38,043 nucleotides of DNA, from the sequence record OR845259.1. One strand, 5' to 3'. The translations under genes were made by a program, and so were the position numbers. This document shows, piece after piece, positions 19,181 to 20,029 of this stretch. Each line of letters starts with the position of its first letter. Position 1 is the first letter of the stretch. The notes under the pieces were generated by a model, which made no database searches, had not been told where the DNA came from, and saw only the letters and a program-made list of their open reading frames with translations. Source of the DNA: Escherichia phage ECO95 1-6-1.

Positions 19181-20029
19181 TTAATCAACTGCTATTGGAT
19201 GAATAGCATTAAACTTATGAAATGCTTCTGATTTTTCTTTACGCGAAACACACATGCGAAGAACCTTTAGTGGTTCGTCTTCTTCACCCAACGATTTTCG
19301 TTTTTCAATATTAGAAGTTTTCCAACGAGCTTGCTCTGGAAACTCTCTATTGATTTGCTCAAGCGCTCTATTATGTTTAGAATTACTACGAATTGAGCTG
19401 CACCCGCCAGGAGCTTGTGCTTTTCCAGATACAACCAGATATTTGAACAAGGCCAAATGCGGATAACCTTGATTAATTAAATTGAGAAATGCATACATAT
19501 CTTCGCATAAATCAATTTTTCCATACCCAATTTGTTCTGTCGTAAGTTTTCCGAGGTCATACCATGTATTCGTGAATCCATATGAATTTTCACGATAATT
19601 ACCCCAAGATGAAGTAATTTTAAAAATAGGTAGACGAGCATGGCCATGATAATACCCGCAATCCATGGCATCTTCAACGTATTGAATCAATTCATAGAAC
19701 TGTTCATGAGTCAATTGATTGACTTTATCCACACAACGACGATCATCTCTTTTTCGCATTGAACTCATACGAATAGTAGTATCATCGTCAATCATCCAGA
19801 TTCGTTGACCTGCATACATATCAGTAATTGCTTTACGAGTACCGGCAATTCCGTTTACATCATCAGGAATAGTTATAATTTTAGCTTTAGACCCATAGGC
19901 ATCATAATAAGCTTTTTCTTCATGTTCACGCACTACAATATGCGGTTCATAATCAGTCGGAAACATATCAAGGGCAGAAACTGCCCCGACACGCTGATAA
20001 CTTGGAATTACGAATTGAATCATTTCCAC
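19181..20029 (-). CDS. putative GT-A-fold glycosyltransferase (282 aa) at the beta-gt locus
   Basis: ORF track; N-terminal QFVIPSYQR and a DXD-type motif IWMIDDD about 75 aa later; sits between uvsX and gene 42. Confidence 0.7.
   Translation of the reverse strand: MEMIQFVIPSYQRVGAVSALDMFPTDYEPHIVVREHEEKAYYDAYGSKAKIITIPDDVNGIAGTRKAITDMYAGQRIWMIDDDTTIRMSSMRKRDDRRCVDKVNQLTHEQFYELIQYVEDAMDCGYYHGHARLPIFKITSSWGNYRENSYGFTNTWYDLGKLTTEQIGYGKIDLCEDMYAFLNLINQGYPHLALFKYLVVSGKAQAPGGCSSIRSNSKHNRALEQINREFPEQARWKTSNIEKRKSLGEEDEPLKVLRMCVSRKEKSEAFHKFNAIHPIAVD

Follow-up and report, generated by a model that had tools for sequence, protein, structure and literature searches.

The 38,043-nucleotide (nt) stretch of Escherichia phage ECO95 1-6-1 analysed here (sequence record OR845259.1; hereafter, the window) is a Tequatrovirus (T-even) segment, with Escherichia phage 121/2022-2B as its best match (96.5% over 24 kb). 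Between uvsX and gene 42, the slot in which T4 carries segA and the beta-glucosyltransferase gene b-gt, lies the minus-strand open reading frame (ORF) 19181..20029, which a sequence-only reading had proposed as an alternative DNA sugar-modifying transferase, possibly of the T2/T6 type. Our analysis indicates that this ORF almost certainly encodes the T2/T6-type beta-glucosyl-HMC-alpha-glucosyltransferase (ba-gt, also named g-gt, ggt or TAGT), a soluble, single-domain enzyme of the GT-A glycosyltransferase (GT) fold that makes alpha-gentiobiosyl-hydroxymethylcytosine (gentiobiosyl-hmC). The proposal is thus supported, though the gene is already known and common, an ordinary part of a T6-like phage genome.

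The ORF is confirmed as described, with 282 amino acids (aa) when counted from a GTG codon. In all annotated orthologues, however, the start is the ATG at 20023, two codons downstream of that GTG; it and the stop of gene 42 overlap in the sequence ATGA, and it is the better placement. The coding sequence (CDS) is then 843 nt long and encodes 280 aa. The protein is identical at 276 of 280 positions to those of T2 and 121/2022-2B and at 278 to that of Solly, from which it differs by K46R and H106R. Against the T6 record MH550421 there are four differences, one of them the record's own amber codon, and the identity is 277/280 where T6 is readable. The protein matches PHROG 842, "beta-glucosyl-HMC-alpha-glucosyltransferase", over residues 1-275 (E=5.2e-89), and passes the Pfam family PF20691 TAGT with 39.1 bits against a gathering cutoff of 27.5, covering profile positions 2-205 of 205. 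The gene is found in 474 phage records at 90-99% nucleotide identity, which, together with the family-invariant motifs described below, places the ORF far beyond a chance frame. T2, T6, Solly and 121/2022-2B all carry it in the same slot between gene 42 and uvsX, and with the T2/T6 gene the window copy further shares its length, the ATGA coupling and the partner alpha-glucosyltransferase (alpha-GT) gene, differing only conservatively or at variable sites (K46, H106). Many database records give the gene a wrong name, among them "hypothetical protein", "beta-glucosyltransferase" and even "thymidylate synthase".

Homologues were searched for in two rounds, which yielded 51 relatives, nearly all with PF20691 and the most distant at about 13% identity; conservation was counted over 49 relatives. 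Both motifs singled out by the sequence-only reading, QFVIPSYQR and IWMIDDD (residues 75-81), are present in the ORF, and they contain most of the invariant residues: R11, R63, D79, D80 and D81 are found in 49/49 relatives. Within the IPSYxR segment I6 is conserved in 98%, P7 in 94% and Y9 in 88%, and elsewhere R212 reaches 96%, Y39 94%, and R32 and T62 92%. D175, an Asp in 43 of the 49 (88%), is the sole other well-conserved acidic position. All family-invariant residues are retained in the window allele.

Concerning the fold, a first AlphaFold2 model based on 10 close homologues was mediocre (a predicted local distance difference test score, pLDDT, of 70) and already gave GT-A matches; it was replaced by a model built from 49 sequences. 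The latter presents a single Rossmann-like alpha/beta/alpha domain resembling solved GT-A enzymes, in which DDD follows strand E74-78 and D175 sits at the N-terminus of helix 174-184. The family profile found one GT2 match in the PDB, 9jma (AvpGT), at a sub-threshold E=0.09, which was used for motif register alone: IPSYxR lies opposite IPTYNR and DDD opposite DDD, and in a weak second stretch the D175 segment "eDyyF" lies opposite "EEDWDF". By analogy, DDD 79-81 is expected to hold a divalent metal and the diphosphate of uridine diphosphate (UDP), and D175 is probably the general base for inverting transfer. Predicted model and homologue alignment therefore agree with the GT-A fold and DXD motif that had been proposed from the letters, while membership of GT2 by sequence was not borne out: hmmscan at E<=10 reported TAGT only, with no Pfam GT2 match, so that the protein is best treated as belonging to a separate GT-A family.

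The genes that supply the acceptor, encoding alpha-GT, gp42 and gp56, are all in the window (Table 1), where the first two had been noted before; they are 90.5% and 96.7% identical to their T4 counterparts. In the proposed pathway gp56 would exclude dCTP and gp42 would make the hydroxymethyl-dCMP precursor, so that hydroxymethylcytosine (hmC) replaces cytosine in DNA. After replication alpha-GT would glucosylate hmC at its hydroxymethyl group, in alpha linkage, and ba-gt would then move a second glucose from UDP-glucose to the 6-OH of this first one, in beta linkage, giving alpha-gentiobiosyl-hmC. The conserved N-terminal IPSYxR would form the nucleotide pocket, and T62-R63 is a further conserved feature. 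Since the donor would be UDP-alpha-glucose and the product a beta-glycoside, the reaction is predicted to be inverting, and for an inverting GT-A enzyme this would mean a DXD-bound metal stabilising the UDP leaving group and a carboxylate base activating the acceptor 6-OH.

This pathway follows the chemistry known for T2 and T6, where alpha-GT acts first and the second glucose is added beta-1,6 (Winkler & Ruger 1993, NAR 21:1500, as cited in PMC11946311), by an enzyme whose activity was already known in the 1960s (Kuno & Lehman 1962, as cited in PMC13216743). Liquid chromatography–mass spectrometry (LC-MS) of Durham Tequatrovirus phages with alpha-GT and TAGT found 5-hydroxymethyldeoxycytidine (5-hmdC) and its alpha-glucosyl and alpha-gentiobiosyl derivatives (alpha-glucosyl-mdC and alpha-gentiobiosyl-mdC), and no beta-glucosyl form. 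Solly and EH2, whose proteins are both 278/280 identical to that of the window, gave by LC-MS about one-third hmC and two-thirds gentiobiosyl-hmC. In T6 without ba-gt the DNA has only alpha-glucosyl-hmC, and has become open to degradation by Brig1 and to release by BapA. Since all invariant residues are kept and the protein matches that of Solly at all but two positions, the phage is predicted to diglucosylate extensively, as T6 and Solly do, and not at the level of about 5% of T2.

Some points qualify this assignment. K46 of the window protein differs from the compared orthologues, and H106 from some of them; both sites are variable, K46 occurring also in RB32 and H106 also in T6. The extent of diglucosylation differs among phages with near-identical enzymes (1:2:2 versus ~1/3:trace:2/3), and therefore it is unreadable from the gene alone. 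For the window phage the product is predicted from its genes, the measurements being from the DNA of phages with orthologues. Finally, the residue roles are assigned by analogy because no experimental TAGT structure was found among PDB sequences, either with phmmer, where the protein gave chance matches only (E>1), or with the family profile. As far as the sequence goes, nothing contradicts the T2/T6-type assignment.

It was also considered whether this TAGT-family enzyme has a donor sugar, linkage or acceptor unlike that of the T2/T6 enzyme, which the sequence-only reading had kept as an option. The family is indeed diverse, many phages having a solitary TAGT or a TAGT with a beta-glucosyltransferase (beta-GT), so specificity varies (PMC13216743). 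For the window protein such a departure is nonetheless very improbable: only 2 of its 280 residues differ from Solly and 4 from T2, at variable positions, alpha-gentiobiosyl-hmC has been measured in Solly-type phages, and the partner alpha-GT gene is present. Likewise, an arabinosyltransferase as in RB69 and other Mosigvirus phages seems unnecessary because of the near-identity to T2, T6 and Solly and of a gp42 so close to the hmC-forming enzyme of T4.

Direct glucosylation of bare hmC, by which the enzyme would replace T4 beta-GT instead of catalysing a second step, is suggested by the location of the gene in the T4 b-gt slot and by the records that call it "beta-glucosyltransferase". It can hardly be reconciled with phages of the same gene set, which show no beta-glucosyl-hmC and leave about one-third of hmC bare, with T6 lacking the gene, which still has ~75% alpha-glucosyl-hmC, or with the ~25-33% of hmC that stays unmodified in T2/T6 and the Durham phages despite their encoding the enzyme. 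A weak or inactive allele, as possible for T2 or sequenced T6 stocks, has precedents in laboratory phages (R11H in T2, Q10amber in T6 MH550421 and DDD to DD in T6 AP018814), but there is very little chance that it applies here, as the window copy is without these lesions, its frame is intact and R11, R63, DDD, D175 and R212 are present. On this evidence a novel sugar or linkage, a direct hmC glucosyltransferase and a pseudogene were all rejected, in favour of the second-step enzyme of T2/T6 type.

Comparison with better known systems places this enzyme more precisely. With the PF20691 TAGT family it shares the invariant R, R and DDD and a full-length profile match, although some 70 C-terminal residues fall outside the Pfam model. 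The family name implies a TET/JBP dioxygenase as partner, whereas the window partners are the thymidylate-synthase-like gp42, acting on dCMP, and alpha-GT; no TET/JBP gene was found in the gene neighbourhood, the hmC source being gp42. This absence is common to all T-even members, and the association belongs to the family name and is no strict requirement. Inverting GT-A enzymes of GT2, such as 9jma (AvpGT, a PglI-like beta-1,3-glucosyltransferase), TarP (6h1j), TarS (5tze), SpsA (1h7l) and cellulose synthase, show 8-15% identity, and their acceptors are lipid, polymer or teichoic acid, in contrast to the sugar on DNA used by ba-gt. T4 beta-GT (GT63, PF09198, PDB 1JG7) has in common with ba-gt the slot adjoining gene 42, the UDP-glucose donor, a beta-glucoside product and phage DNA as substrate, but it has a GT-B fold and hmC itself as acceptor, where ba-gt uses alpha-glucosyl-hmC. 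There is no sequence similarity between the two (best BLASTP E=0.28, over 10 residues), in line with the earlier remark that the ORF does not resemble T4 beta-GT, and tblastn of T4 beta-GT over the whole window gave no match even at E<=10. According to a 2026 survey, phages that encode GTs as a rule pair a TAGT with an alpha-GT or beta-GT, the T4 alpha plus beta pair being rare (6/753 genomes), and an AlphaFold3 model of T6 TAGT is GT-A, sister to GT2 (PMC13216743).

The alleles of the laboratory phages deserve separate comment. It is a 60-year-old observation that about 5% of hmC is diglucosylated in T2 and about 72% in T6. In T2 (AP018813) codon 11 is CAT, encoding His, unlike the window, where 19991..19993 read CGT and give the family-invariant Arg, as in Solly, EH2, RB32 and T6. 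The 5' sequence with R11H occurs in only 8 of 445 records, seven of T2 and that of SV76. EH2 and RB32, the nearest relatives, differ in the first 80 nt solely at the R11H nucleotide, and the EH2 protein differs from that of T2 by H11R and S251P only, with EH2 DNA about two-thirds gentiobiosyl-hmC. The invariance of R11 across the family makes R11H a plausible cause of the low diglucosylation in T2. We tentatively suggest, with the odds slightly against it, that a hypomorphic R11H in the nucleotide-binding motif explains the T2 and T6 values, and that the window allele is the fully active T6 type. A literature search, with the 1993 cloning paper outside its coverage, found no cause for the T2 versus T6 difference.

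The public T6 records carry lesions of their own, both missing from the window copy. In MH550421 codon 10 is TAG (amber) in place of the CAG (Gln10) found in the window, T2 and T6 AP018814; the protein annotated there, of 261 aa, begins at an ATG further downstream and would be without the first beta strand and IPSYxR. Use of this protein as "T6 TAGT" may affect studies relying on that record. In AP018814, at codons 79-81, one GAT is lost from GATGATGAT, by which DDD becomes DD and the protein 279 aa. In T6 the run is a perfect (GAT)3, more prone to slippage than GACGATGAT, the form shared by the window and T2. For both T6 lesions, either a true mutation of the stock or an error in sequencing may be the source.

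Table 1. Positions in the window of ba-gt, its motifs, the genes of the hmC pathway and other features.
Feature	Position	Strand	Remarks
ba-gt (g-gt, ggt, TAGT)	19181..20023	-	beta-glucosyl-HMC-alpha-glucosyltransferase CDS, 280 aa + stop
IPSYxR motif, QFVIPSYQR, residues 3-11	19991..20017	-	first beta strand and nucleotide-binding motif
DDD, residues 79-81, GAC GAT GAT	19781..19789	-	DXD-type metal / UDP-diphosphate binding motif (predicted)
D175 in CEDMYAF	19499..19501	-	candidate catalytic base
Hairpin GGGGCAG-TTT-CTGCCCT, G+C-rich	19971..19987	-	within ba-gt codons 13-18; identical in window, T2 and T6
uvsX	17922..19103		gene order in window: uvsX, ba-gt, gene 42
gene 42, dCMP hydroxymethylase	20020..20760	-	96.7% identical to T4 gp42; immediately upstream of ba-gt, overlapping it
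a-gt, alpha-glucosyltransferase (GT-B)	31987..33189	-	362/400 (90.5%) identical to T4 alpha-GT
gene 56, dCTPase/dUTPase	12318..12836	-	73% identical to T4 gp56 over 172 aa; PHROG 173
HNH homing endonuclease ORF, 207 aa	31187..31810	-	phrog_10820, E=1e-94; between gene 47 and a-gt
87-aa ORF	24510..24773	-	phrog_3826, E=3e-37; between gene 43 (DNA polymerase) and regA
49-aa hydrophobic membrane ORF	20768..20917	-	phrog_3610, "42.1" in RB32; between gene 42 and imm
66-aa dam.1-like ORF	12908..13108	+	as in T6; in gene 56-61 gap

Directly after the ba-gt stop, at 19157..19180 on the minus strand, TGCCTAAA is followed after 11 nt by TATAAT, an arrangement upstream of uvsX which we take to resemble a MotA-dependent middle promoter of T4. 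A scan for sigma-70 promoters and terminators around ba-gt gave 14 sites versus 9.1 +/- 3.1 in shuffles, that is, no enrichment.

Set against T4, the window shows three additional ORFs (the HNH, 87-aa and 49-aa ORFs) and two absences (segA, and dam between genes 56 and 61). The HNH ORF shares 23 nt with the start of gene 47 and is present at the same gene 47/a-gt site in 121/2022-2B, being absent from T4, T2 and T6. The 87-aa ORF has about 40 nt in common with the 3' end of regA and is annotated as hypothetical in 121/2022-2B; in T4, T2 and T6 the gap between gene 43 and regA is only 78 nt. The stretch between gene 42 and imm, which holds the 49-aa ORF, is unannotated in the T4, T2 and T6 records. 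As for the absences, tblastn of T4 segA over the whole window gave no match, and the gap between genes 56 and 61 (12837..13104) is only 268 nt and therefore contains no dam methyltransferase, unlike in T4 and T2.

For the window, the finding is a matter of correct annotation. Judged from its genes, the DNA of this phage would contain hmC, alpha-glucosyl-hmC and mostly alpha-gentiobiosyl-hmC, and not the alpha/beta mixture of T4. Such a pattern bears on how sensitive the phage is to defences. Gentiobiosyl-hmC is resistant to the Brig1 glycosylase in vitro and to deglucosylation by BapA, yet GmrSD/BrxU-type enzymes still target DNA that carries it.
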